Source of the DNA: Goleter apudmare HA4340-LM2
GTDB lineage: Bacteria > Cyanobacteriota > Cyanobacteriia > Cyanobacteriales > Nostocaceae
Reading direction: 5' to 3'
DNA: 64,000 nt
Assembly: GCA_019359495.1 (NCBI GenBank)
Contig: JAHHHF010000091.1
Span: 1-64,000, forward strand
This document shows positions 41,971 to 55,332 of the stretch, piece after piece. The stretch's first letter is position 1, and each line of letters opens with the position of its first letter. Under the pieces are notes generated by a model. The model saw only the letters and a program-made list of their open reading frames with translations. It was not told the DNA's origin and ran no database searches. The translations under genes and the position numbers were made by a program.

Positions 41971-42290
41971 GTACTTGTGACCTCATGCATTATCTATGCG
42001 ATCGTAAATATATTTTTGATTGTCATTTGTTATTTGTTATTTGTCATTTGTTAAAAGGCAATAGGCAAGATTGAAGACGTTTCCCCAATGCCCCATAGCC
42101 CTGGCCGCCACTTGCTAGAAGTCGGGAAACCCGCCCACGGCGCTGTCTCCCCAAAGCAGTGGCTTGGCTACACAGACGAAACCCACCTCCGTGGGTTTGA
42201 AAGTCCTAATTTTTGGTTAGTCCGTGCAGGCGGACTTTGTTTGTGTAGTAGCGAATTATATTCGCCCAAAACTTTTCAAACATACTCTTA

Positions 42291-42470
42291 AGCCTTTAGA
42301 TGACGGCATTAAGCCTTTAGGTGACGATATTAAGCCTTTAGATGACGGCATTAAGCCTTTAGATGACGGCATTAAGCCTTTAGATGACGGCATTAAGCCT
42401 TTAGATGACGGCATTAAGCCTTTAGATGACGATATTAAGCCTTTAGATGACGGCATTAAGCCTTTTAGTT
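42291..42470. repeat. 21-bp tandem repeat, about 8.5 copies (TTAAGCCTTTAGATGACGGCA consensus)
   Basis: Directly visible. Two copies have point variants (ggtgacgata, gatgacgata). Creates an artefactual ORF encoding (DDGIKPL)n. Confidence 0.9.
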
Positions 42471-44541: not shown

Positions 44542-44792
44542 GCAGCTAAGTAGGTAGGTGCGAATATTTATAACTATGTAAAGACAAATAAATGAGGCTA
44601 AAACCCTCTTCTCTCCTGCCTTATCCCAACGATAAATTCTTCAACCCGCCTACTTATAGCCTTTCTCGGTTGAACGCAACACAATCAAGGGCGGGGAAAC
44701 CCCGCCCCTACGGGTTTTGTGATTTAAAACTGTACTTCACTCGTCTGAAAACCGCTATAAGCGATCGCCTTTTATTCTCTATCTCTCAACTC

Positions 44793-46040
44793 TTAATTTT
44801 TCCCATTGGGACGCTGAATAATCGTTTCTACCACCCGCCGCTTGGCTTTGGGATCTATACCCACCAAACGCAAGTACTCGCCGCTATATTCCACTAGACA
44901 TGATTCTAAGGCTGAGATGGCATCTGAATGGGCGTCAATATGGGTGTTGAGACAACTTTGCCAAGAACCAGTGCGGAAACGCCGCTCATCTACGTGTTCA
45001 ATGCTAATCTTGTAGCCTTGAGCTAAGATTTGCCGGATTTGTTCTTGTGTCTCTAGGCTCAAATGTGTACTCGTGCCTTGTGGTGGCTGCAATCCATTGG
45101 TTAATGGCTGAGGAGTTGGTGTCACAGGCGCAGGGGCGGGGGCTTGATAATTTCTCCCTCTATTGAGTCGATTGTAATCATCAACTAACTGGGAATTTTC
45201 TACTCGTTTTTGTTCTGCAACCATCAAGTTCCCAGACTCGATTAAGTGAGACAAGCTAAAATTGGGCTTGGGAAACTCTGGCGGCCCTTCAACGCTATTC
45301 ACCACACGCAAGGATACATGCTCAAATCCTATTTGATGGATGAATTTACGGATTTGTTCGTCATAAATTCGAGAACGTAAAGCGCTAAAAAAGTCAACTG
45401 ACTGATAAGCGAAAGTATCAACTAACTGTTCTACTTCCCGTTGTGACAACCCGTCTGGGGCAAAGATCCCACCAACAATCCCCACCTTATCGTCACGGTT
45501 TGGTTCCCAGTAAAATTTCTCCATGCGTCCATCACGAATCAATGGTGCATAGAGGGTAGAAAAATCATTACCTGTGACAATAATCGGCACACGACATAAA
45601 GGTGTAGAATCGTAACTACCAGGCAACTGCACATCTGTGGGATTATCGGCAATATTCATCAGTGTGGCATTCACCAACTGAGTATTTACAGTATATTGCG
45701 TGCCTTCATCAAAGCGTCCCGCACCCGCATCTAAATCATTAATCATCAGCACGCACATTTTACCGCGCACTTTGACGAGTTCTGCGGTTTCCCGATAACG
45801 CAGCCGAATCAACCTTGCTGGATCTCCTGCATCTGGACTTTCCAATTCTCCACCAGATATCAGTGTCACCTCAATACCCATTTTCTCAAAGACTAATTCG
45901 CATTGAAAAGTTTTGCCCTCGCCTTTACGGCCGTGAATCCCCAAAATCAAGGGTACTCGGACTCCGGGAAGATTCAGGAAGTTTTTGGTGATGTGGACAG
46001 CCAGTTTATCGAGAAACCGGGGAGCAATATAGTAAGCCAT
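44793..46040 (-). CDS. rca: Rubisco activase (AAA+), cyanobacterial type with C-terminal RbcS-like (SSUL) domain (415 aa)
   Basis: AAA+ Walker A (GIHGRKGEGKTF) and Rca-specific sequence. C-terminal about 90 aa (KISIEHVDERRFRTGSWQSC...GEYLRLVGIDPKAKRRV) resemble the Rubisco small subunit, as in Nostocales Rca. Confidence 0.85.
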   Translation of the reverse strand: MAYYIAPRFLDKLAVHITKNFLNLPGVRVPLILGIHGRKGEGKTFQCELVFEKMGIEVTLISGGELESPDAGDPARLIRLRYRETAELVKVRGKMCVLMINDLDAGAGRFDEGTQYTVNTQLVNATLMNIADNPTDVQLPGSYDSTPLCRVPIIVTGNDFSTLYAPLIRDGRMEKFYWEPNRDDKVGIVGGIFAPDGLSQREVEQLVDTFAYQSVDFFSALRSRIYDEQIRKFIHQIGFEHVSLRVVNSVEGPPEFPKPNFSLSHLIESGNLMVAEQKRVENSQLVDDYNRLNRGRNYQAPAPAPVTPTPQPLTNGLQPPQGTSTHLSLETQEQIRQILAQGYKISIEHVDERRFRTGSWQSCLNTHIDAHSDAISALESCLVEYSGEYLRLVGIDPKAKRRVVETIIQRPNGKN

Positions 46041-46162
46041 GAACCTGTTTGTGAGTAGCTAGCACTATATAGTAAGTTTTTCTGGTTGTAGTGCGATCGC
46101 TTTTCTCAGATTTGTTTGGGTTAACTGTTGAGATCATTGCTACAAGTGATCGCCATCATGAT

Positions 46163-48598
46163 TTACCCACGCACTAGGCAAGATGGCGGTATAAGTGTGG
46201 GGCTATGAGGGTTGAATGTAGCAGCTTGGGCTACTAAATGCACTCTACCTTGAGCATCCACAACCCACCCTTGGGCTTCGACAATTTGAGTAGGGGGATT
46301 GACATCCTGACTTTTTTGTGTGCTGTTTTGTCTGCTAGTATGAGGGCGATCGCTATTGGCTTCTAAATTGATCCAATCTGCCAGCACCGTTTCACTTGAC
46401 AATGGCTCGGTGGGGCCAGATTTTATGCCTCCACGCCCTGTGTACACAAACGAAGCTGTGAGGAATTTCCCACCAGGATTGCAAGCGGTAAAAAGTTTCC
46501 CGGAAGCATCAATCAGATTTACAGGTAATTCTATTATTCCTTTAGTGGGGTCAAGATCCGGTGTGTCGATGAGGATAGTACCACTTAATAAAGGATTTTG
46601 CTGCGAAAATGCTGTGATGTCACTGGTTTGTAACTCCGCCGGGTCGAGTTGATTCGGGTCATTAGTTTGTAACAACTCCACCAAATCTGCACGAGTGCGT
46701 GTTACCAAACCAAAAATCCTTGCAGTATTGATGATGATTCTGCCACCAGCACCAGAAAAGGCATTGGCAGTGATATCACTATTTTCTATGGGAGAAGCGA
46801 CAATAAAGCCATTAGGGGTATCAATGGTGATATTCCCACCATCCCCACCAGCCTGCGCCCTACCCGCACTAGTGGATATTTGACTCTGACGACGCAGCAG
46901 CAATAAATCCTGCACCTGTAGTTTAATATTCCCACCCAGACCAGAATCAGTTTCTGAGGTGAGTTTGCCTTGGTTATCTAGCACCACAGAGCGGGCGGTT
47001 ATATCTAACTCCCCAGCCTTTCCCAGATTTCTGTTGGTAGAAAGCGGTGAAAGATTACTGCTTGAATTTATTCTAGCTCTATCCCGAATGATCAATTTCC
47101 CTGTATTCAGCGTCAAGTTACCCGCATCTCCAGGGCCTTGAGTCGAAGTCAACAACCCAGTGACGCTATTATTTGCTAAATTGCCGATTAATTCTACAGA
47201 CTCGGTGGCATTTACAGTCAAATTTCCACCATTACCTGTAGCAGAGATAAATTGTCTAGAAGCTGCTGAGAAAGATCCTGTAGATTGTGTGCTTACCCTT
47301 GCGCCACCTTGAACAATCAATTTCCCAGTGTTAATCGTAATATCACCCGCATTTCCCGCACCAGAAGTTGCACTAAACAAACCACTGAAATTAAATCCGG
47401 AAATGGGGAATTGAAGCCTGAAGCCACCAAGGAGTTCCACAGAATCTGAGGCGTTAACAGTCAATTTTCCCGTGGAACCTGAACTAGAACTACCAACTAC
47501 TAGTTGTGCTCCATCCCGAACAATTAACTTGCCAGTGGTAACAGTTAAATTGCCAACGTTACCAGAACTGAGACTTCTAGTCCTTAAGGATGTAGGAAAA
47601 CCAATCAGTTCTACAGACTCAGAAGTATTAACTGTTAAATCACCTCCAGGTTTTGATCCCAAGGTATTCGCCAAAATTATTGCACCGTCAGTTAGCGACA
47701 AACGCCTACCTTGCACCTGAATATTGCCAGCCCCCTCACCACTTACATCCACATAAGATGGAATTTGATTTCGCCCCATGATTTGGATGTTATGAAAATT
47801 CTGGACATTTTGATATCCCAAACTCCAGCCCTCATTGATGGCGTTCAGACTGACAAAACTATTGGCTGCGACGCTTCCTAATTCTATTCGCCCTTCTTTT
47901 GCCGTTAAATTACCTCCCTCCAGGCTCAAATCTCCACCAACTAAAGCTAAAGTTCTACCTGTATTTACCTGTAAACCAACGGGTGCATTAACGCTATTTC
48001 TCTCACCCCTTGGACTAGCTTGAGATTGATTGCGAATAGTTCCGGGAGTAGCTCCGAATTGTAAGCCAATGGGCACACTGACTGTTAGCAAGGGTGTAGT
48101 TTGGGGAGATGTAGCGCTAAATTTAGTCCCATCAGCAAAGTTAATACTATTAGCCGTACTAGCCACAAATGAACCACCGATGTTGAGGGAGGCATTAGGG
48201 CCAAAAACAATGCCATTAGGATTAAGTAAAAACAGGTTAGCATTACCGTTGGCGCGGAGTACCCCATCAATATCAGATATAGAGTTACCCGTTACCCGGC
48301 TGATAATGTTTTGAATATTGGCAGCGTTGTTAAAATAAGCTGTGGTACCCTGAGAAACAGAAAATTGTTCAAAGCTGTGAAAGAGGTTTGTACCCCGAAC
48401 AGCCCCACCATCTATCTGATTAATCGGCTGATTATTAATTAGTTGGGGCGTCACAATCGAACTTTCAGACCCTAGGGTGTTATCTCCGGTAATTTCAGCC
48501 AGAGCAGCATCCCCACATAAAGCGAATGCTCCAAGAATCGCTAGAGGAGTCCATACCCTTAGCTTGCAGCGCAGACTGCTTTGGTTAAGAGAAATCAC
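46163..48598 (-). CDS. Two-partner-secretion exoprotein with haemagglutination-activity (TPS) domain and beta-helical repeats (811 aa)
   Basis: Signal peptide, then canonical TPS domain (NNAANIQNIISRVTGNSISDIDGVLRANGNANLFLLNPNGIVFGPNASLNIGGSFVAST), then long Gly/Asn/Thr-rich beta-helix repeats. Confidence 0.8.
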   Translation of the reverse strand: MISLNQSSLRCKLRVWTPLAILGAFALCGDAALAEITGDNTLGSESSIVTPQLINNQPINQIDGGAVRGTNLFHSFEQFSVSQGTTAYFNNAANIQNIISRVTGNSISDIDGVLRANGNANLFLLNPNGIVFGPNASLNIGGSFVASTANSINFADGTKFSATSPQTTPLLTVSVPIGLQFGATPGTIRNQSQASPRGERNSVNAPVGLQVNTGRTLALVGGDLSLEGGNLTAKEGRIELGSVAANSFVSLNAINEGWSLGYQNVQNFHNIQIMGRNQIPSYVDVSGEGAGNIQVQGRRLSLTDGAIILANTLGSKPGGDLTVNTSESVELIGFPTSLRTRSLSSGNVGNLTVTTGKLIVRDGAQLVVGSSSSGSTGKLTVNASDSVELLGGFRLQFPISGFNFSGLFSATSGAGNAGDITINTGKLIVQGGARVSTQSTGSFSAASRQFISATGNGGNLTVNATESVELIGNLANNSVTGLLTSTQGPGDAGNLTLNTGKLIIRDRARINSSSNLSPLSTNRNLGKAGELDITARSVVLDNQGKLTSETDSGLGGNIKLQVQDLLLLRRQSQISTSAGRAQAGGDGGNITIDTPNGFIVASPIENSDITANAFSGAGGRIIINTARIFGLVTRTRADLVELLQTNDPNQLDPAELQTSDITAFSQQNPLLSGTILIDTPDLDPTKGIIELPVNLIDASGKLFTACNPGGKFLTASFVYTGRGGIKSGPTEPLSSETVLADWINLEANSDRPHTSRQNSTQKSQDVNPPTQIVEAQGWVVDAQGRVHLVAQAATFNPHSPTLIPPSCLVRG

Positions 48599-48807
48599 AG
48601 AGTTTACATCCTCACAAACAGCAGCTTTAGATTAATCAGGATGATACCACTGTGTGATTGCCCCACTAAATAATGCCCAGGCGATTGCTCATCAATCCAC
48701 CCCGGTTTTATCTCAAGCCAAAATCGCCCCTCTACGGTGTACACAGAAGTGATACCTGCGGCGGGCTACGAAGTAGTGTGAGCGTCTCGCTCACGCGGGC
48801 ATTGCTA

Positions 48808-49380
48808 AGAGGATGTTTGAAAAGTCTAAATTAATACTAGCCTTGGCGATTAGAAATCGCGGCTACACAGACAAAACCCACCTCCGTGGGTTTGAAAGGC
48901 CTAATTTTTATTTATAGCGGTTTTCAGACGAGTGAAGTACAGTTTTAAATTGCAAAACCCGTAGGGGCGGGGTCTCCCCGCCCTTGATTGTGTTGCGTTC
49001 AACCGAGAAAGGCTATAGTCCGCGCAGGCGGACTTTGTTTGTGTAGTAGCGAATTATATTCGCCCAAAACTTTTCAAACATCCTCTAAAAAGTTGCATAA
49101 GTAGAGGAAGTGCCGCGCAATGTCTAATCGCGCTATCTAGCAACATAGTCCACGCCGAGATTAATCTCGGCGTGGAAAGAAAAAAATATTATTCAGCAGT
49201 CACAGCTTGGAAAATAACTAGGTAACGTGTAAAAGTCACACCACGCGAACTTGACTAACTTAATTTACTGAGTAACCGTCACCCACATCACCAGACGCAA
49301 TTAAATACATGTCCAACAGCCACCAGGAACGCAGTCTTCACACCAAACCATAGTGCAATCTGCTAGTTTTATTTGCGGTT
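48808..49380. repeat. About 570-bp segment duplicated nearly identically at 50155-50727 (copy A)
   Basis: Direct read-through comparison: identical over most positions, including the gctacacagacaaaacccacctccgtgggtttgaaag... MITE core and the 3' ends of both small Cys-rich genes. Confidence 0.85.
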
Positions 49381-49774
49381 TTTGAATTTCTTCCAACCAT
49401 TTTTTAACTTGCTGACTCTCATCACTAATACGAGGTTGAGTTTTAATGATGTCTAATATCTCTTGAAATTGCACAGCGCTATCTTCTGCATCATACTTAT
49501 CAAATACTTTGGCAATCTGAGATTGCTTCAAGCTCTCAAAAATCTGGCGAATATCACTCTCGCTACCAGTTTCTTGATAGTTAACTTTTAAGTCTAGATA
49601 ATCTTGCTTAATTTCACGAGCATACCGTTCATAAATTGGCACCGACACATTTGCTGCTGCACCATTGATAATTCTAGCTTGAGCAGTGGCTGTAAAAATC
49701 GAACCAATTGCAACAGCAGCCGTTGCTACTGAAGTAGTAACTAAACGACTCCAAATGGTAGTTGAAACGCTCAT
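49301..49774 (-). CDS. Secreted small protein with Cys-rich C-terminus CTMVWCEDCVPGGCWTCI (157 aa), paralog 1
   Basis: N-terminal signal peptide (..ATAQA). C-terminal 35 aa nearly identical to the ORF at 50648-51007. No family recognised. Confidence 0.5.
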   Translation of the reverse strand: MSVSTTIWSRLVTTSVATAAVAIGSIFTATAQARIINGAAANVSVPIYERYAREIKQDYLDLKVNYQETGSESDIRQIFESLKQSQIAKVFDKYDAEDSAVQFQEILDIIKTQPRISDESQQVKKWLEEIQKPQIKLADCTMVWCEDCVPGGCWTCI

Positions 49775-50154
49775 ATTACCCCGTATTTAAGGAATAGTTC
49801 GCTGCTAAATAGCAGCTTTATATGAGCCTCATTATCTACTGATAAAGCCAACTGTCTTGAATGCTGAATACAAAACTTTATATATACGGTTAAAGTATTT
49901 ATTTTCTGGACAAATGATTTAACTTAAATCTCCTCAGTCTAATAAACATAACTTAATTTCTGACATAATACAAGCCTGTTCACATAGCGAATTGCAGACG
50001 AAATATCAGAATTTATGTAGTAGTGTATGTGCCCATCGTGTAGGAATCTATCCCATCTGTAAAATCAGATAAATTATCAAATTAATGCAGATTTGTATAA
50101 TGATGATATTGACATTTTTAATAATCAATGGTTTCGCTTTTTAACTGTCATTGC

Positions 50155-50727
50155 TAAGAGGGTGTTTGAAAAGTCTAAATTAATACTAGCCTTGGCGATT
50201 AGAAATCGCGGCTACACAGACAAAACCCACCTCCGTGGGTTTGAAAGGCCTAATTTTTATTTATAGCGGTTTTCAGACGAGTGAAGTACAGTTTTAAATT
50301 GCAAAACCCGTAGGGGCGGGGTCTCCCCGCCCTTGATTGTGTTGCGTTCAACCGAGAAAGGCTATAGTCCGCGCAGGCGGACTTTGTTTGTGTAGTAGCG
50401 AATTATATTCGCCCAAAACTTTTCAAACATCCTCTAAAAAGTTGCACAAGTAGAGGAAGTGCCGCGCAATGTCTAATCGCTATTTAGCAATATAGTCCAC
50501 GCAGAGATTAATCTCTGCGTGGAAAGAAAAAAATATTATTCAGCAGTCACAGCTTGGAAAATAACTAGGTAACGTGTAAAGCTCACACCACGCGAACTTG
50601 GCTAACTTAATTTACTGAGTAACCGTCACCCACATCACCAAACCCAATTAAATACATATCCAAGTGCCATCAGGAGCGCACTCTTGACACCAAACCATAG
50701 TGCAATCTGCTAATTTGATTGGTGGTT
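50155..50727. repeat. Copy B of the about 570-bp duplicated segment
   Basis: See copy A. Period between copies is about 1347 bp. A third occurrence of the boundary motif (gaggatgtttgaaaagtc) is at 51236. Confidence 0.85.
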
Positions 50728-51007
50728 TTTGAATGCCTGCCAACAATCCCTGGCCTTCCTGACTCTCATCAGCACCACTCGGTTGAAGTTTGCTCATGTC
50801 AAGAGTATATTCCCATTTGACAGCGTTATCAGGTATCCCATACTTAGTAAGTACAGGGCCGATGCTAGATGTCTTCAAAGCTTCGTTAATTGCCAGTCTA
50901 ATATCTTCCTCAAACTGCTTGAGTGTTTCAGAATCCATAACTGTGTCCTTGTTTACAAATTGTTGGTTCAGTAAATCTAACTTGTGATTTACTAATTTAT
51001 TCATCAC
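50648..51007 (-). CDS. Small protein with Cys-rich C-terminus CTMVWCQECAPDGTWICI (119 aa), paralog 2, no signal peptide
   Basis: Homologous to 49301-49774 across most of its length (KY..D.AV.....LD; QP..DESQ; IQKP.IKLADCTMVWC), but lacks the N-terminal signal peptide. Confidence 0.45.
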   Translation of the reverse strand: MMNKLVNHKLDLLNQQFVNKDTVMDSETLKQFEEDIRLAINEALKTSSIGPVLTKYGIPDNAVKWEYTLDMSKLQPSGADESQEGQGLLAGIQKPPIKLADCTMVWCQECAPDGTWICI

Positions 51008-51532
51008 CTCGGTTTCTACCAGTTCCGGATTCCGTCACAAAAATTTCTGCGGTAATCCCGTAACCTGATCAATACCAGCAGCCTACGGCGATTCTCAAAA
51101 AGTCTTTTGCACAAAGGAAAATCTGAACTTAACATCATTGGTAAATTCTTCCCCATGACGCCACTTGCTACAAGTCTGGCGAAGGAACGCAGGGCTGCCT
51201 CCATGCCCTTGTGGATGGAGTTTTTGATCTAGCTCAGAGGATGTTTGAAAAGTCCTCTTGTCGGTATCAAAAGTTTTAGATCCCTCTAAATCTACGCCAC
51301 TTGCTACAACGGGGAGGCAGCCGTGTGGGCGGGTTTCCCGACTTGTAGACGCCCTCCGGGCGGCTACTCTACGAGAACGCTTTCAGCGAACCCGCAGGGT
51401 ACGGACTGCCGTGGGAACCCCCGAAGTTTGCCGAACATCTCCCCGGCAACTTCTCTCCGCAACGCAGTGGCTCCCCTTAAAAAGCAGGGTTAGGTTTTAG
51501 AGTTGCGTCACAGGCTTTTGCTGGGAGCATCC

Positions 51533-51650
51533 CAAATGTGTAAATTTATTTTTTTGTAGTGCGTGCTTCTAGCCCGCTTCCTGGACATTAGGGAGCAAGA
51601 TGCTCCCACTACAAATTTTATTTTTGCAAAATTGGGATGCTCCCCTTTTG
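51533..51650. repeat. MITE-like palindromic element, second copy at 59191-59305
   Basis: Sequence caaatgtgtaaa(t/c)ttatttttttgtagtg...gcccgcttcctggacattagg(g/t)agcaagatgctcccactacaaattttatttttgcaaaattgggatgctccc is shared. It has internal inverted repeats (ttgtagtg / cactacaa). Confidence 0.75.
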
Positions 51651-51979
51651 CTCCCCCCAACTCCTTTTGAAAAGCAAAGTTGTTTCATTCCCTCAAAGAC
51701 ATAAAACAGGCTGATGTTGTGAACGAAAGCACTTGTGTGTACACCGTAGGTTGAGGGCTGAGGGGTGGAACGTTACAGAGTGCCATACCCCTACAAGGTC
51801 TTGACCCTCACCCCACCTATTATGTTAATAATAGCAATGCCTAAGTATTTAACACTACTTGAAATGAGATACCAAAGTATTTACGTAACTAGAGAAAATT
51901 ACTGAAATATCTGCTTTAGATATTACCGATGGAGAGTCAGATTTAAATAGATATTGGAGTAAATCTCCCTCAGGCAACC

Positions 51980-53506
51980 ATGATTGTAACTGGACAACAG
52001 CACAGCAATATGGGAGAAGAATCAATCTCCCTCCAACTGTCTCAACAACTGGGGATACTCCAGCGACTAAATCAACTTACCAACCAACGACTAACTAATA
52101 TCCCAGAACTGTTAGAACTGATGGTACAGGAAGTTTGCCATGGCATTGACAGTACACAGTTTTGCCTGATGGCGTTATGTGACAGCCAAACCCAACAGTT
52201 AGAATTAAGTGCCGCCGCCGGCGTAGGTATAGAAAAGTTGCCTTTCCTGAATTTACATAACAGCCTAGAATCTAGAGATACTTTCTGGGGGTGGCAGGAA
52301 AAATCAATTCCCTCACATCTACCGAGTATAGAATTAGGTTTATTACCACAGGTATTTGCCACAGGTGTTTCTCAGCTATTCCAAGGAAGTGGAGAACAAA
52401 CAGAGTCTGTTGTGGAAGAGTTTCCCTCATCTACTTCTCTCCCCGCCTTCTGTGCTTTTACCCCCTCATCAATGTATGCTGTGGCAATCAAGTCAGCGCA
52501 AGCGGGACACCTGGGAGTGTTGGCTATTGGTAATTGGGATCATCACCATGCTTTTGATGTCGCTACCCAGAAACTTTTAGATGCAGTCGGAGAAGTAGTA
52601 GCGATCGCCATCAATAATGCCAAAATGATTAAAGCTTTAGAAGAACGAGAAGAACGATTAGCCCAACAAAACGAAATTCTCTTCGCGCAAAATCGTGAAC
52701 TTGAAAAAACTCGACACCAAATTCAGTTACAGAATCTGCAACTTTTGGAAGCAGCAGAGTTAAAGTCTCAGTTTTTAGCTACCACTTCCCACGAACTCCG
52801 CACTCCCCTCAACGTGATTTTGGGTTTATCACAAGTGTTGTTGCGTCAACGCAATTCTACCTTATCTGAACCACAAGTAGAAATGGTGCAACGCATTTTG
52901 CATAATGGTAATCACCTGCTGGCAATTATTGACGATATGCTCTATTTTGCTAAAGTCGAAGCAGGTAGGCTGTCATTTCAAGTAGCAGAATTTGATTTAA
53001 CTACATTAATCTTCACAACCGTAGCTGAACACCGTTCTTTAGCAGAGGACAAATTCTTAGATTTGCAAGTAGAAGTTAATCTTGCTAGTCCCCTAGTTGT
53101 GAACGACAGTGCGCGCCTTAAACAGGTTTTAGTCAAGCTATTGTTAAATGCTATTAAGTTTACAGAAACTGGTAGCGTAGCCATAAAAGTATGGGAAATG
53201 GCTAGTGATAGAATTGCGATCGCTATTCAAGATACTGGCATAGGTATCGCTAATTCTGATCTGAGTGACATTTTTGAGCAATTTACGCAAGTTGATCAGA
53301 GTAATACGCGCCAGCATAATGGTATTGGTTTGGGACTAGCAATTACCAAATCACTAGTAGAAATTATGCAAGGCACCATCACCGTTACTAGTAAACTGGG
53401 TCAAGGTTCCACCTTCCGTATAGAATTGCCTAGGAAAATTAACTTTCAAGGTGGGAATTGGGCGGCTAAACAGCCCCACCAACCATCAAAGCGCATGATT
53501 TTTTAG
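51980..53506 (+). CDS. Sensor histidine kinase with N-terminal GAF-like domain (508 aa)
   Basis: HisKA H-box (TSHELRTPLNVILG) and HATPase_c N, G1 and G2 boxes (LLNAIKFT, QDTGIGI, GIGLGLAITKSLVE). Confidence 0.85.
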   Translation: MIVTGQQHSNMGEESISLQLSQQLGILQRLNQLTNQRLTNIPELLELMVQEVCHGIDSTQFCLMALCDSQTQQLELSAAAGVGIEKLPFLNLHNSLESRDTFWGWQEKSIPSHLPSIELGLLPQVFATGVSQLFQGSGEQTESVVEEFPSSTSLPAFCAFTPSSMYAVAIKSAQAGHLGVLAIGNWDHHHAFDVATQKLLDAVGEVVAIAINNAKMIKALEEREERLAQQNEILFAQNRELEKTRHQIQLQNLQLLEAAELKSQFLATTSHELRTPLNVILGLSQVLLRQRNSTLSEPQVEMVQRILHNGNHLLAIIDDMLYFAKVEAGRLSFQVAEFDLTTLIFTTVAEHRSLAEDKFLDLQVEVNLASPLVVNDSARLKQVLVKLLLNAIKFTETGSVAIKVWEMASDRIAIAIQDTGIGIANSDLSDIFEQFTQVDQSNTRQHNGIGLGLAITKSLVEIMQGTITVTSKLGQGSTFRIELPRKINFQGGNWAAKQPHQPSKRMIF

Positions 53507-54391
53507 TCATTGGTTAAGATTTCTAATAACTTCTACATCTAACTCAAATATCTCAGCCACTTCTTGTATACTCATTCCTCGTTGCAGCAGTTTTTTGATC
53601 ATTTCTTCTTTAACTTCCTGCTTAACTTCTTCTTTAACTTCCTGCTTAACTTCTTCTTTAACTTCCTGCTTAACTTCTTCTTTAACTTCCTGCTTAACTT
53701 CTTCTTTAACTTCCTGCTTAACTTCTTCCCTGGCTTCCTCTTTCAACTCTTGATATACTCTCGTACCCCTAATTAATTCTAGACTTAACATTTCTTTTAT
53801 CTCCTCTCTGCTCAAATTGGGAAACTTATTAACAAGAATAGCTTCTATTAATTCTAAAATTTTTCTTTGGATGGCGGCATCACTTACTTCCAGTCTTGCT
53901 TGATTAACTAGTTGTCTAACTGATTCTTTGGCTTTTTGCTTGCCTTCAACAATTAGTTTAATGATTCTTAATCCTAATGATTGGCTTGATGCGTCTTCCA
54001 TTTCATCAAGATAGAAGCAGCGTAGGTGCGGTGATTTCAAAGAATTAAGACGCTGAGGAAAGTCTACATCATTTGTACGCTCATCAAATATTACTATAGC
54101 ATACCAGGCAGAATTAGATGGTTGATATTGATAGAAGTAAAGCAGAATACTTGTTAAAAATCTGTCGTAAAAAAGTTTATCTTTGTAACATTGAACTTCT
54201 ACAAAATAAATTGGTTCGTTCGGCGAACTTTTTAAAGTTGAAAATATACCATCTAAGCGGAAGCTAGTTTCCTTAACTTCTTGGCTTTGAAATTCATAAA
54301 GATTGGGATTAGTCTCTGGTTTACCAATCAGTTCAAAAAAGATATTAGGAAATTCTTGAAAGAGTTTATAAAAAATCGTGTCTGTTTTCAT
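53507..54391 (-). CDS. Rpn-family recombination-promoting nuclease / PD-(D/E)xK putative transposase (about 294 aa) with internal (EEVKQEVK) repeat
   Basis: N-terminus KTDTIFYKLFQEFPNIFFELIG is the hallmark of cyanobacterial Rpn/YhgA-like proteins. C-terminal DUF4351-like tail. Seven in-frame copies of a 24-bp repeat at 53590-53745. Confidence 0.7.
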   Translation of the reverse strand: MKTDTIFYKLFQEFPNIFFELIGKPETNPNLYEFQSQEVKETSFRLDGIFSTLKSSPNEPIYFVEVQCYKDKLFYDRFLTSILLYFYQYQPSNSAWYAIVIFDERTNDVDFPQRLNSLKSPHLRCFYLDEMEDASSQSLGLRIIKLIVEGKQKAKESVRQLVNQARLEVSDAAIQRKILELIEAILVNKFPNLSREEIKEMLSLELIRGTRVYQELKEEAREEVKQEVKEEVKQEVKEEVKQEVKEEVKQEVKEEVKQEVKEEMIKKLLQRGMSIQEVAEIFELDVEVIRNLNQ

Positions 54392-54435
54392 GGAATTAGG
54401 GAATAGGGCATGTCTCATCTCTCTCCTGTATCTTC

Positions 54436-55332
54436 TCACTCTTTGCGTTCAGCTATTCTTAACTTGGCTGAACGCGATCGCGCATTGTTGACAATTTCTT
54501 CATCTTGTGCAGTAATTGGTTTTTTCGTCAACACTCGCAATAAGGGCGAATTTCTTAAACCATGTTTTACTAGTCGGTCTTCCAAACTATGAAAACTGAT
54601 AATGGCGATTTTACCACCGGGGACAAGGGCATTTGGTGCTTGCTCTATCAGAGTTTCTAGGGACTTTAACTCGTCGTTGACGACAATTCGCAGGGCTTGA
54701 AAAACACGAGTAGCCGGGTGAATTCTCCCATAACGGTATTTAGGAGGAACAGCAGAAGCGATCGCCTCTGCTAACGCTACAGTTGTAAGCAAGGGTCGTC
54801 TTTCAACTATCCTTCTAGCAATGCGCCGCGATAGTCTCTCTTCGCCGTACTTAAAGAAAATATCTGCTAACTCCCCTTCATCCCACTCATTAATCACATC
54901 AGCAGCAGTCAGGGATTGACGTTGATCCATTCGCATATCTAGATTAGCTGCGTGGCGAAAGCTAAAACCCCGTTCCGGCGTATCGAGATGGTAAGAACTC
55001 ACCCCCAAATCGGCAATAATTCCATCGAAAGTACTAGGCGGAAACTTGTAAGTGGCGAAATTACTATGGACAAATTGCACACGTTCCCCATACTCAGCTA
55101 AATACTTCTGGGCGGCTATTAAAGCATCCTCATCTTGGTCAATGGCTGTTAAATAAACATTCTCAGCCGCTTCTAAAATTAAGCGACTGTGTCCACCGCC
55201 GCCTACTGTCGCATCTAAATAATGTCCGCCGGGATGCACCGCCAAATCCTCAATCACCTCCCGACGCAACACGGGAATATGGGAAAAAGTAGATGCTTCT
55301 AAATTAAATGGTGTCTGGGAATCTGATTTCAT
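54436..55332 (-). CDS. rsmH: 16S rRNA (cytosine1402-N4)-methyltransferase RsmH/MraW (about 298 aa)
   Basis: Sequence [13 protein letters not shown]...[15 protein letters not shown] (SAM-binding) and conserved C-terminal region. The ORF runs further upstream to 55608 through a repeat element; start chosen at MKSDSQ. Confidence 0.85.

Follow-up and report, generated by a model that had tools for sequence, protein, structure and literature searches.

Small cysteine-tailed proteins paired with TpsA-like exoproteins in Nostocales cyanobacteria

In two-partner secretion (TPS, type Vb) systems such as FHA/FhaC, ShlA/ShlB and CdiBAI, the secreted exoprotein has a Sec signal peptide, a TPS domain with an NPNGI motif, and beta-helix repeats. 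We analyzed a window of 64,000 nucleotides (the whole stretch of DNA considered here; contig JAHHHF010000091.1) from Goleter apudmare HA4340-LM2, a metagenome-assembled genome of the order Nostocales, in which two small genes for cysteine-rich proteins, here called copy A and copy B, are located upstream of a gene for an 811-aa exoprotein with these same features. Unlike the systems named above, the TPS gene in the window has no adjacent TpsB gene, no variable toxin tip and no immunity gene, and in a full-text literature search we did not find an upstream small Cys-tailed protein as a feature of any described TPS system. The TPS proteins of the CHAT/DUF928/CHASE2/TPS clusters (for example in PCC 7120 pAlpha) belong to the same wider protein family as the TPS protein in the window, but those clusters go with a distant TPS clade in which the small gene is missing at 27 of 28 loci, and the window contains no CHAT, DUF928 or CHASE2 gene. 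The clusters themselves appear to be uncharacterised.

Eukaryotic disulfide-rich prepropeptides such as conotoxins and defensins have a conserved pro-region and a mature region that diverges between lineages, with an even-Cys framework that is constant in each lineage. For the small proteins described here they provide a functional analogy; unlike them, our family is bacterial and mostly lacks a signal peptide, and its maturation and activity are putative. Two groups of bacterial peptide precursors also resemble the family. The Nif11 and NHLP precursors of RiPPs (peptides that are made by the ribosome and modified after translation), such as prochlorosin ProcA (Haft et al. 2010, PMC2887384), are like it in being cyanobacterial proteins, about 90-110 aa in length, whose long and structured N-terminal region is conserved and is followed by a short variable C-terminal peptide, and in having many paralogs per genome, some of which are orphans. 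Our family differs from them in having no conserved Gly-Gly site (LLAG or LLGG occurs only in 4 of 6 sequences of the window subfamily, copy A having WLEE and protein P0005 having LLPG), in having tails with little Ser and Thr and an even number of Cys residues, and in having a TPS exoprotein as the linked gene, with no LanM, radical SAM enzyme or peptidase-containing ATP-binding cassette transporter (PCAT) nearby. When we compared the window proteins and nine distant members to Pfam and NCBIfam using hmmscan, neither the Nif11 (PF07862/TIGR03798) nor the NHLP (TIGR03793) models matched at E <= 1. The double-glycine precursors of bacteriocins and pheromones, which are exported by peptidase ABC transporters (Wang et al. 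2011, PMC3140520), share with our family the lack of a Sec signal peptide and a C-terminal peptide that is possibly disulfide-bonded, as well as the LLAG/LLGG motif of the window subfamily. They differ from it because the leader in our family is 3-4 times longer and is folded, the motif is not family-wide, and our family has neither a cognate transporter nor an immunity gene. The precursor-like architecture is of a known kind; the family itself appears to be new, and so does its pairing, one to one, with a TpsA-like exoprotein.

A conserved two-gene module

The genes at the center of this study are:

46163-48598, minus strand: TpsA-like exoprotein, the partner gene; 811 aa, with a Sec signal peptide, a TPS domain at residues 34-295, beta-helix-type repeats and a conserved C-terminal region
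49301-49774, minus strand: copy A, a 157-aa chimeric open reading frame (ORF) composed of the signal peptide and N-terminus of PstS, then a diverged pro-domain, then the Cys tail IQKPQIKLADCTMVWCEDCVPGGCWTCI
50648-50938, minus strand: copy B, an intact 96-aa family member (MDSETLK...TWICI) with its ATG at 50938; pro-domain at residues 1-52, acidic linker at 53-68 and Cys tail at 69-96
50939-51007, minus strand: N-terminal extension of a 119-aa ORF, with a GTG start, outside the copy B gene

The 811-aa protein matches Pfam domain PF05860 (E = 2.8e-66, residues 34-295) and TIGR01901 (E = 1.9e-26). It has the arrangement of a TpsA protein, a signal peptide followed by a TPS domain with NPNGI, and the longer motif LNPNGIVFG is invariant in alignment A5. 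Two Cys residues near the C-terminus, C706 and C807, are invariant or nearly so.

At other loci, a small gene is again located directly upstream of, and on the same strand as, a gene for a TPS protein of 778-830 aa: once at L006, L007 and L013/L014, and as two pairs each at L010, L012 and L016. These partner proteins are full-length homologs of the TPS protein in the window (48-59% identity by BLASTP; 53-61% in alignment A5). By searching species-representative genomes from the TPS side we found at least 591 relatives, and kept 79 loci in which six-frame ORFs were scanned with a hidden Markov model of the small family. A family gene ending at most 713 bp upstream on the same strand is present beside 39 of the 46 TPS relatives that have at least 45% identity and enough upstream sequence, as compared to an upstream family gene in 1 of the 28 with lower identity, and all 56 of the 56 family matches in TPS-oriented loci are on the TPS strand. 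The small gene is 70-700 bp upstream of the TPS gene, and the modules are often in tandem arrays. The small gene and the TPS gene form a conserved two-gene module; the TPS side of it is a single clade of TpsA-like exoproteins, about 800 aa long. A first-pass annotation of the window, made by a model from the sequence alone, had remarked on the co-oriented placement of the small genes upstream of the TPS gene and proposed a search for further copies in other Nostocales; the placement is not a coincidence, and the search yielded some 60 small representatives and a module that recurs at many loci.

The same annotation compared the locus to polymorphic-toxin or orphan-module arrangements. By that account the TPS protein would deliver a toxin, with the small proteins serving either as immunity proteins or as modules that can be exchanged. 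CDI (contact-dependent inhibition) toxins are indeed found among TPS proteins, the small proteins are variable and occur in arrays, and some TPS fragments are fused to small genes, suggesting recombination among modules. However, ten TPS partners can be aligned through to their C-termini (IVEAQGW...C807) with only short linkers varying, so that they are conserved over their full length and have no variable toxin tip. The small gene is upstream rather than downstream, the neighbor clusters contain no conserved small downstream or immunity gene, and PADLOC found nothing. The tails of the small proteins are not strain-specific: each orthologous group keeps its tail across many Nostoc species. What looks locally like a conserved 3' module belongs to a conversion-like tract in which non-coding DNA and a transposable element are also present (see below). 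The toxin account is largely refuted, and we regard it as very improbable.

The distant TPS clade (<45% identity) is accompanied by CHAT, DUF928-like and CHASE2 proteins instead of the small family, with Rivularia loci L054 and L074 having CHAT, DUF928, a small family gene and a TPS gene together. We observed such CHAT/DUF928/CHASE2 clusters at L054, L056, L065, L073-L091 and L096. The last of these is the Nostoc PCC 7120 pAlpha locus (334129-352060), where a distant TPS gene directly follows genes for a peptidase-domain ABC transporter and HlyD, and where there is no small-family gene. We also considered a link to histidine kinases, which are encoded near the module in the window, L007 and L008, and rejected it because the similarity is only that of generic kinase domains and does not recur.

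The small-protein family and its possible function

Both minus-strand ORFs reported by the first-pass annotation exist and are true paralogs in a family of Cys-rich small proteins, but copy B had been read as the 119-aa ORF 50648-51007. Copy B is a 100% match to the 96-aa protein KME23_23140 of G. apudmare HA4340-LM2, and a search of 5.8 billion proteins found four further orthologs, with 72-75% identity, in Fortiea and other Nostocales. All 5 of these 5 homologs are exactly 96 aa long and begin at the Met equivalent to position 50938, and at the orthologous loci in Fortiea and L004 the frame is closed three codons upstream of that Met, so the gene encodes 96 aa and not the 119 aa of the ORF. 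For the four orthologous coding sequences that were available, pairwise dN/dS is 0.11-0.25, which indicates that copy B is a functional gene.

We built a family profile from six sequences and searched it against 1.84 billion representatives (clustered at 50% identity), which found 70 proteins at E <= 1e-3, about 60 of them 83-188 aa long; the large proteins among the matches (P0007, P0027, P0051 and others) were discarded as unrelated repeat proteins. A separate scan of loci starting from the small-family alignment A3 gave 15 pattern matches, none of which was confirmed. As the first-pass annotation supposed, there is no known family: no Pfam or NCBIfam model matches in the hmmscan comparison, and no fold match was found either. 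The family is real and so far unmodelled in Nostocales. An origin of the ORFs as chance readings of intergenic DNA rich in miniature inverted-repeat transposable elements (MITEs), which was the artefact feared at first (no homologs, and an identity between copies that is all MITE), could draw on the many MITE pieces in the region, on the unrelated and largely MITE-derived ORF at 44592-44897, and on the poor constraint on copy A. Against it stand the orthologs in other genera under purifying selection, the roughly 60 distant relatives, and the position of the MITE, which lies outside the coding sequence and starts 215 bp past the stop codon of the small gene, so that the similarity between the copy A and copy B proteins is not derived from it. 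For copy B this explanation is refuted, and we give it practically no weight.

The family has a conserved alpha/beta N-terminal domain of about 65 aa (consensus ..LQQL.DEIQQE..E.LKNS.L..VLEKYGIS...VLKFQ(C/Y).LDL.KIQ), followed by an acidic disordered linker of variable length, a conserved hydrophobic beta-strand (often AIPG.ELVL..), and a tail of 8-25 aa with a high content of Cys, Pro, Gly and Trp. In the AlphaFold2 (AF2) model of copy B (pLDDT 80) there are helices at residues 3-23 and 26-32, a strand at 41-46, a disordered segment at 56-66, and a C-terminal hairpin at 74-95. An apparent resemblance between the pro-domain and the N-terminal part of the TPS domain (NSNLSKVLEKYGIS..LKFQ versus GTNLFHSFEQFSVS..AYFN) was rejected as homology, because hhalign of A4 against A5 found that region with a probability of only 0.2% (E = 0.27).

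Tails cannot be aligned between subfamilies. They include the types (W)C.PCPS.G.P.GC(N/Y)C, PCP.DG.PDGCW, CC......C.(K/P)C, and single loops such as CW.D.DGNR.CKP, besides the window type IQKP.IKLA.CT.VWC..C.P(D/G)G(C/T)W.CI; in several subfamilies the tail is one C-x9-C loop that turns at a central DG or NG. The pattern of a conserved leader and a hypervariable core is present in alignment A4 and in the column conservation profile, which is the reverse, family-wide, of the conserved 3' module and variable 5' module that the first-pass annotation described from the two local copies. Within a subfamily, in contrast, the tail is among the best conserved parts, with 15 of 28 positions invariant in the window subfamily and similar conservation in 23 orthologs of the C.PCP type across many Nostoc species. 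Because tails are retained within subfamilies and differ between them, the diversity is between old paralogous lineages and is not rapid strain-level variation. The first-pass suggestion of a secreted-peptide family comes close to the reading that we prefer.

We counted Cys residues in the last 32 residues of each protein. Of 118 unique sequences, 102 have an even count, as do 42 of the 52 representatives at <=50% identity (binomial P = 9e-6), and this parity is independent of a lone Cys in the pro-domain. Tail composition is 17% Cys, 9% Pro, 7% Gly and 3% Trp, with no enrichment of Ser or Thr. The even number of Cys residues and the lack of Ser/Thr enrichment favor intramolecular disulfides and disfavor lanthionine-type chemistry.

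Fusions between a Sec signal peptide and the family domain are recurrent: they are derived from TPS genes in L041 (5181-5594), L066 (3400-3918) and P0065, and from PstS in copy A. These fusions are consistent with an extracytoplasmic role, and some may be recombination debris from tandem arrays. We also observed ORFs that join a TPS signal peptide or a degenerate TPS-domain fragment to a pro-domain and Cys tail in L039 (5995-6519) and L033 (9431-9859), and further TPS/small-family fusion ORFs in L066 (919-1416 and 1727-2224). The L033 and L041 fusions have an identical junction, which suggests that the fusion has persisted across species.

Our preferred reading, to which we assign a probability of roughly 45%, is that these proteins consist of a pro-domain and a disulfide-constrained tail peptide that acts at the envelope or cell surface together with the cognate TPS exoprotein. 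The N-terminal domain would be the pro-domain, serving as a recognition or export handle, and the tail would carry the function, as a beta-hairpin peptide that is held by disulfides and forms outside the cytoplasm. Each peptide type would work with its own TPS exoprotein at the cell envelope or surface, perhaps as a ligand, as cargo or as a maturation partner. In its logic such a precursor would resemble those of the disulfide-rich prepropeptide families, in which the pro-region is conserved and the mature region is diversified, with an even number of Cys residues. This pro-peptide reading draws on the orthologs under constraint, the TPS module, the Cys parity of the tails, their conservation within subfamilies, and the signal-peptide fusions.

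Several observations weigh against it, and some of them favor its main rival, in which the protein would be a cytoplasmic accessory factor: an intact alpha/beta protein whose Cys cluster is a zinc knuckle or a redox C-x-x-C site, and which serves the adjacent TPS protein, for instance as a dedicated chaperone before secretion or by regulating its expression. In the canonical members, copy B among them, no signal peptide can be read from the sequence. About half of the members have one unpaired Cys in the pro-domain, which a cytoplasmic protein could tolerate but which is unusual in an exported one unless the pro-domain is removed. The most common tail count is four Cys residues (57 of 118 tails), and C-x-P-C is enriched (13 observed versus 5.4 expected, a number reached in 2 of 2000 shuffles); both would also fit a cytoplasmic zinc or redox site, and in several tails W-C-x-x-C follows the hydrophobic strand. 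The AF2 model has a compact fold in which the tail strand is docked onto the pro-domain sheet, so the protein may act uncleaved, and a one-to-one pairing with TPS paralogs would suit a dedicated chaperone. The structural prediction that the first-pass annotation called for gives a hairpin for the Cys module. On the other side, 43 of 118 tails have two or six Cys residues, and in the 2-Cys loops (e.g. CWVDDDGNRVCKP) there is no additional ligand pattern; the generic C-x-x-C motif is not enriched (32 observed versus 30.8 expected); tails that cannot be aligned between subfamilies would be unusual for a structural metal site; the 2-Cys members retain the tail although their pro-domain is degenerate and of low complexity; and the signal-peptide fusions recur. 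We consider a cytoplasmic factor unlikely, though it is the strongest competitor.

The genomic surroundings also count against the pro-peptide reading. Across 90 loci (L006-L095), no exporter, protease or TpsB gene recurs beside the module, and there is none in the window, where TpsB was sought among the scanned ORFs of the full 64 kb. The closest orthologs of the window genes, at Fortiea locus L001 and at L004, are orphans that adjoin an aminotransferase gene and have no TPS gene nearby. Adjacency is, moreover, no demonstration of physical interaction, and our full-text literature search found no experimental data or literature on the family or the module.

The small proteins could also be RiPP precursors in the style of the prochlorosins, with a structured leader and variable core, modified by unlinked enzymes (LanM, radical SAM, YcaO or MNIO) and exported by a peptidase ABC transporter, in which case their adjacency to TPS genes would be regulatory or incidental. 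The leader/core architecture, the many paralogs per genome, and the LLAG/LLGG motif ahead of the tail in the window subfamily all suit this idea, and the long structured leader is reminiscent of NHLP and Nif11 precursors, though neither model matches even at E <= 1. The distant TPS relative on Nostoc PCC 7120 pAlpha, directly after a peptidase-domain ABC transporter and HlyD, points the same way, but that locus has no family gene. The Gly-Gly-like motif is missing from copy A, P0005 and most of the family, and thioether or azole chemistry would not impose even-Cys parity on Ser/Thr-poor tails. No peptidase ABC transporter or RiPP modifying enzyme recurs within 6-10 kb in the same 90 loci, nor is one present in the window, and the tight one-to-one linkage to TPS paralogs is left unexplained. 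We rate a RiPP precursor as less likely than a cytoplasmic factor.

Copies A and B and the repeat between them

The minus-strand order from 51007 down to 46163 is copy B, its 3' untranslated region (UTR), a 279-bp MITE, about 380 bp of unique AT-rich DNA, copy A, its 3'UTR, the same 279-bp MITE, a spacer of about 210 bp, and the 811-aa TPS-domain gene. The parts of this arrangement are:

49541-49774, minus strand: pstS-derived 5' part of copy A, with a signal peptide ending ...TAQA and then degenerate INGAAANVSVPIYERYA...VNYQETGSESDIRQ
49301-49387, minus strand: tail segment of copy A, 28 codons plus stop; its copy B counterpart is 50648-50734
49087-49300, minus strand: 3'UTR of copy A, duplicated at 50436-50647 with 94.4% identity
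49222-49244 and 50569-50591, minus strand: terminator-like hairpin in the 3'UTR
49149-49176 and 50496-50523, minus strand: palindrome in the 3'UTR, conserved at Fortiea L001 10503-10529 and at L004 3823-3849
48808-49086, no strand: MITE A, 279 bp, with 18-bp inverted ends AGAGGATGTTTGAAAAGT and a nested inner element at 48912-49017
50157-50435, no strand: MITE B, the same nested element in the same placement relative to copy B
51232-51254, no strand: solo MITE terminal repeat, found as repeat family D5 and by motif search

Copy A is a chimera. Its residues 13-81 match the N-terminus of PstS (NCBIfam NF008171, E = 7.2e-6), and residues 13-106 match a PstS structure in PDB (9k3s_E, E = 2.6e-4). 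A full PstS protein has a periplasmic-binding-protein fold of about 320-350 aa with phosphate-binding residues. Copy A covers only the signal peptide and the first strand and helix, corresponding to positions 5-73 of the 346 in the NF008171 profile, and the GAGATFP-type motif of PstS has degenerated to GAAANVS, so we ruled out that copy A is a PstS protein; it carries a captured fragment. The PstS signal peptide and N-terminus have replaced the first helix of the family domain. The rest of copy A is a paralog of copy B (52% identical), and the homology covers only about the last 85 residues of copy A, not the whole length of the ORF as first thought. The source annotation of copy A is only 103 aa long (P0006). 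Over the same codons of the pro-domain, pN/pS is 0.56-0.85 for copy A as compared to 0.21-0.30 for copy B; the copy A pro-domain has evolved under relaxed constraint, almost neutrally. The two tails (28 codons, excluding the stop) differ at 7 of 28 residues, through 8 nucleotide differences that are non-synonymous and 3 that are synonymous. Upstream of copy A, the AT-rich stretch of unique sequence (49775-50156) was presumably acquired together with the pstS fragment, and several TTAA-type octamers in it might be remnants of Pho boxes, in which case copy A might be phosphate-regulated.

The repeat that the first-pass annotation described as almost perfect is real (48800-49443 versus 50149-50791, 645 columns with 93.5% identity by blastn; spacings of 1349 and 1347 for repeat families D2 and D3), but it is graded. 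Between the copies, the homologous 5' coding part is 57% (45-60%) identical and the final 80 bp of coding sequence (49301-49380 in copy A) 86%; identity is 94.4% over 214 bp of 3'UTR and 99.6% in the 279-bp MITE, and falls to 39%, as in unrelated sequence, directly past the outer end of the MITE. The 5' halves, which are only 45-60% identical or are unrelated, rule out that a 1349-bp unit was simply duplicated in tandem in recent times. The simplest history looks like later homogenization, by gene conversion or partial re-duplication, of the tail, 3'UTR and MITE of an old paralog pair. The proposal to align the copies for signs of gene conversion thus yielded a graded tract that is consistent with conversion, and that fits partial re-duplication too. 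This history does not account for two details: the homology ends exactly at the outer end of the MITE, and the MITE is significantly more alike between the copies than the adjoining UTR is.

The motif AGAGGATGTTTGAAAAGT forms the 18-bp terminal inverted repeat of the MITE and occurs 6 times in the window, against 0.11 expected. Its occurrence at 51236, taken at first for a third cassette boundary, is present but belongs to a solo MITE terminal repeat. The 106-bp inner element (48912-49017) also stands alone at 44655-44760, and the outer element occurs without the inner one at 42166-42291. The element has the properties of a MITE: it is short and non-coding, with inverted ends and multiple copies or pieces in the window.

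The palindrome in the 3'UTR is perfect (27-28 nt, TCCAYGY.GAG..CTC.RCRTGGA) and lies about 100-215 nt past the stop codon. It is restricted to the window subfamily, with compensatory changes between the two window copies and between genera. A T-run is located 5' of its stem on the coding strand, so it is not a canonical terminator. An Rfam search of 46000-52000 gave only sub-threshold matches: one to a Plastid-rpl20 3'UTR over the palindrome, and one to CRISPR-DR28 (32.9 bits; gathering score 35) at the MITE hairpin AGTCCGCGCAGGCGGACT (49016-49039 and 50365-50388). The CRISPR-DR28-like hairpin, which has no array, is probably the MITE stem-loop.

Elsewhere in the window, a 415-aa ORF directly downstream of the TPS gene (44793-46040, minus strand) looks by eye like a cyanobacterial Rubisco activase-like protein, which places the module amid ordinary housekeeping genes. 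A 101-aa ORF (44592-44897, plus strand) is mostly translated inner element of the MITE (LNATQSRAG.PRPYGFC.LKLYFTRLKTAI) and is a chance ORF, not a gene. Upstream of copy B there is a 62-aa ORF (51016-51204) with no family match, a GC-rich block at 51260-51660, and further inverted-repeat pairs at 51523-51544/51623-51644 and 51553-51578/51590-51615; the block and the pairs are probably other small mobile elements. A gene for a DUF2887 protein (53507-54439, minus strand) has perfect tandem 24-nt units near its C-terminus, encoding (EVKQEVKE)n.

Significance for Nostocales

The window documents the capture of a signal peptide from pstS by a small Cys-tailed gene, and the homogenization of 3' ends by a tract that ends at a MITE. 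Beyond the locus itself, it is conceivable, though on balance doubtful, that the module is a new type-Vb-linked peptide system in heterocystous cyanobacteria. Each TpsA would then have a dedicated Cys-tailed protein whose tail is carried, presented or matured at the surface, and the tails might be ancient lineage-specific signals or adhesion ligands acting from filament to filament or in symbiosis.

The pairing of the two genes gives an experimental handle on the function of the cyanobacterial proteins annotated as 'filamentous hemagglutinin N-terminal domain' proteins, and on the route by which a protein that lacks a signal peptide could arrive in an oxidising compartment. Nostocales are studied for their cell-cell signalling, symbiosis and natural products. 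If our preferred reading is true, it would add to their biology a sizeable and wholly unannotated family of peptide-bearing small proteins, tied to two-partner secretion, for which no such peptide partner has been described.

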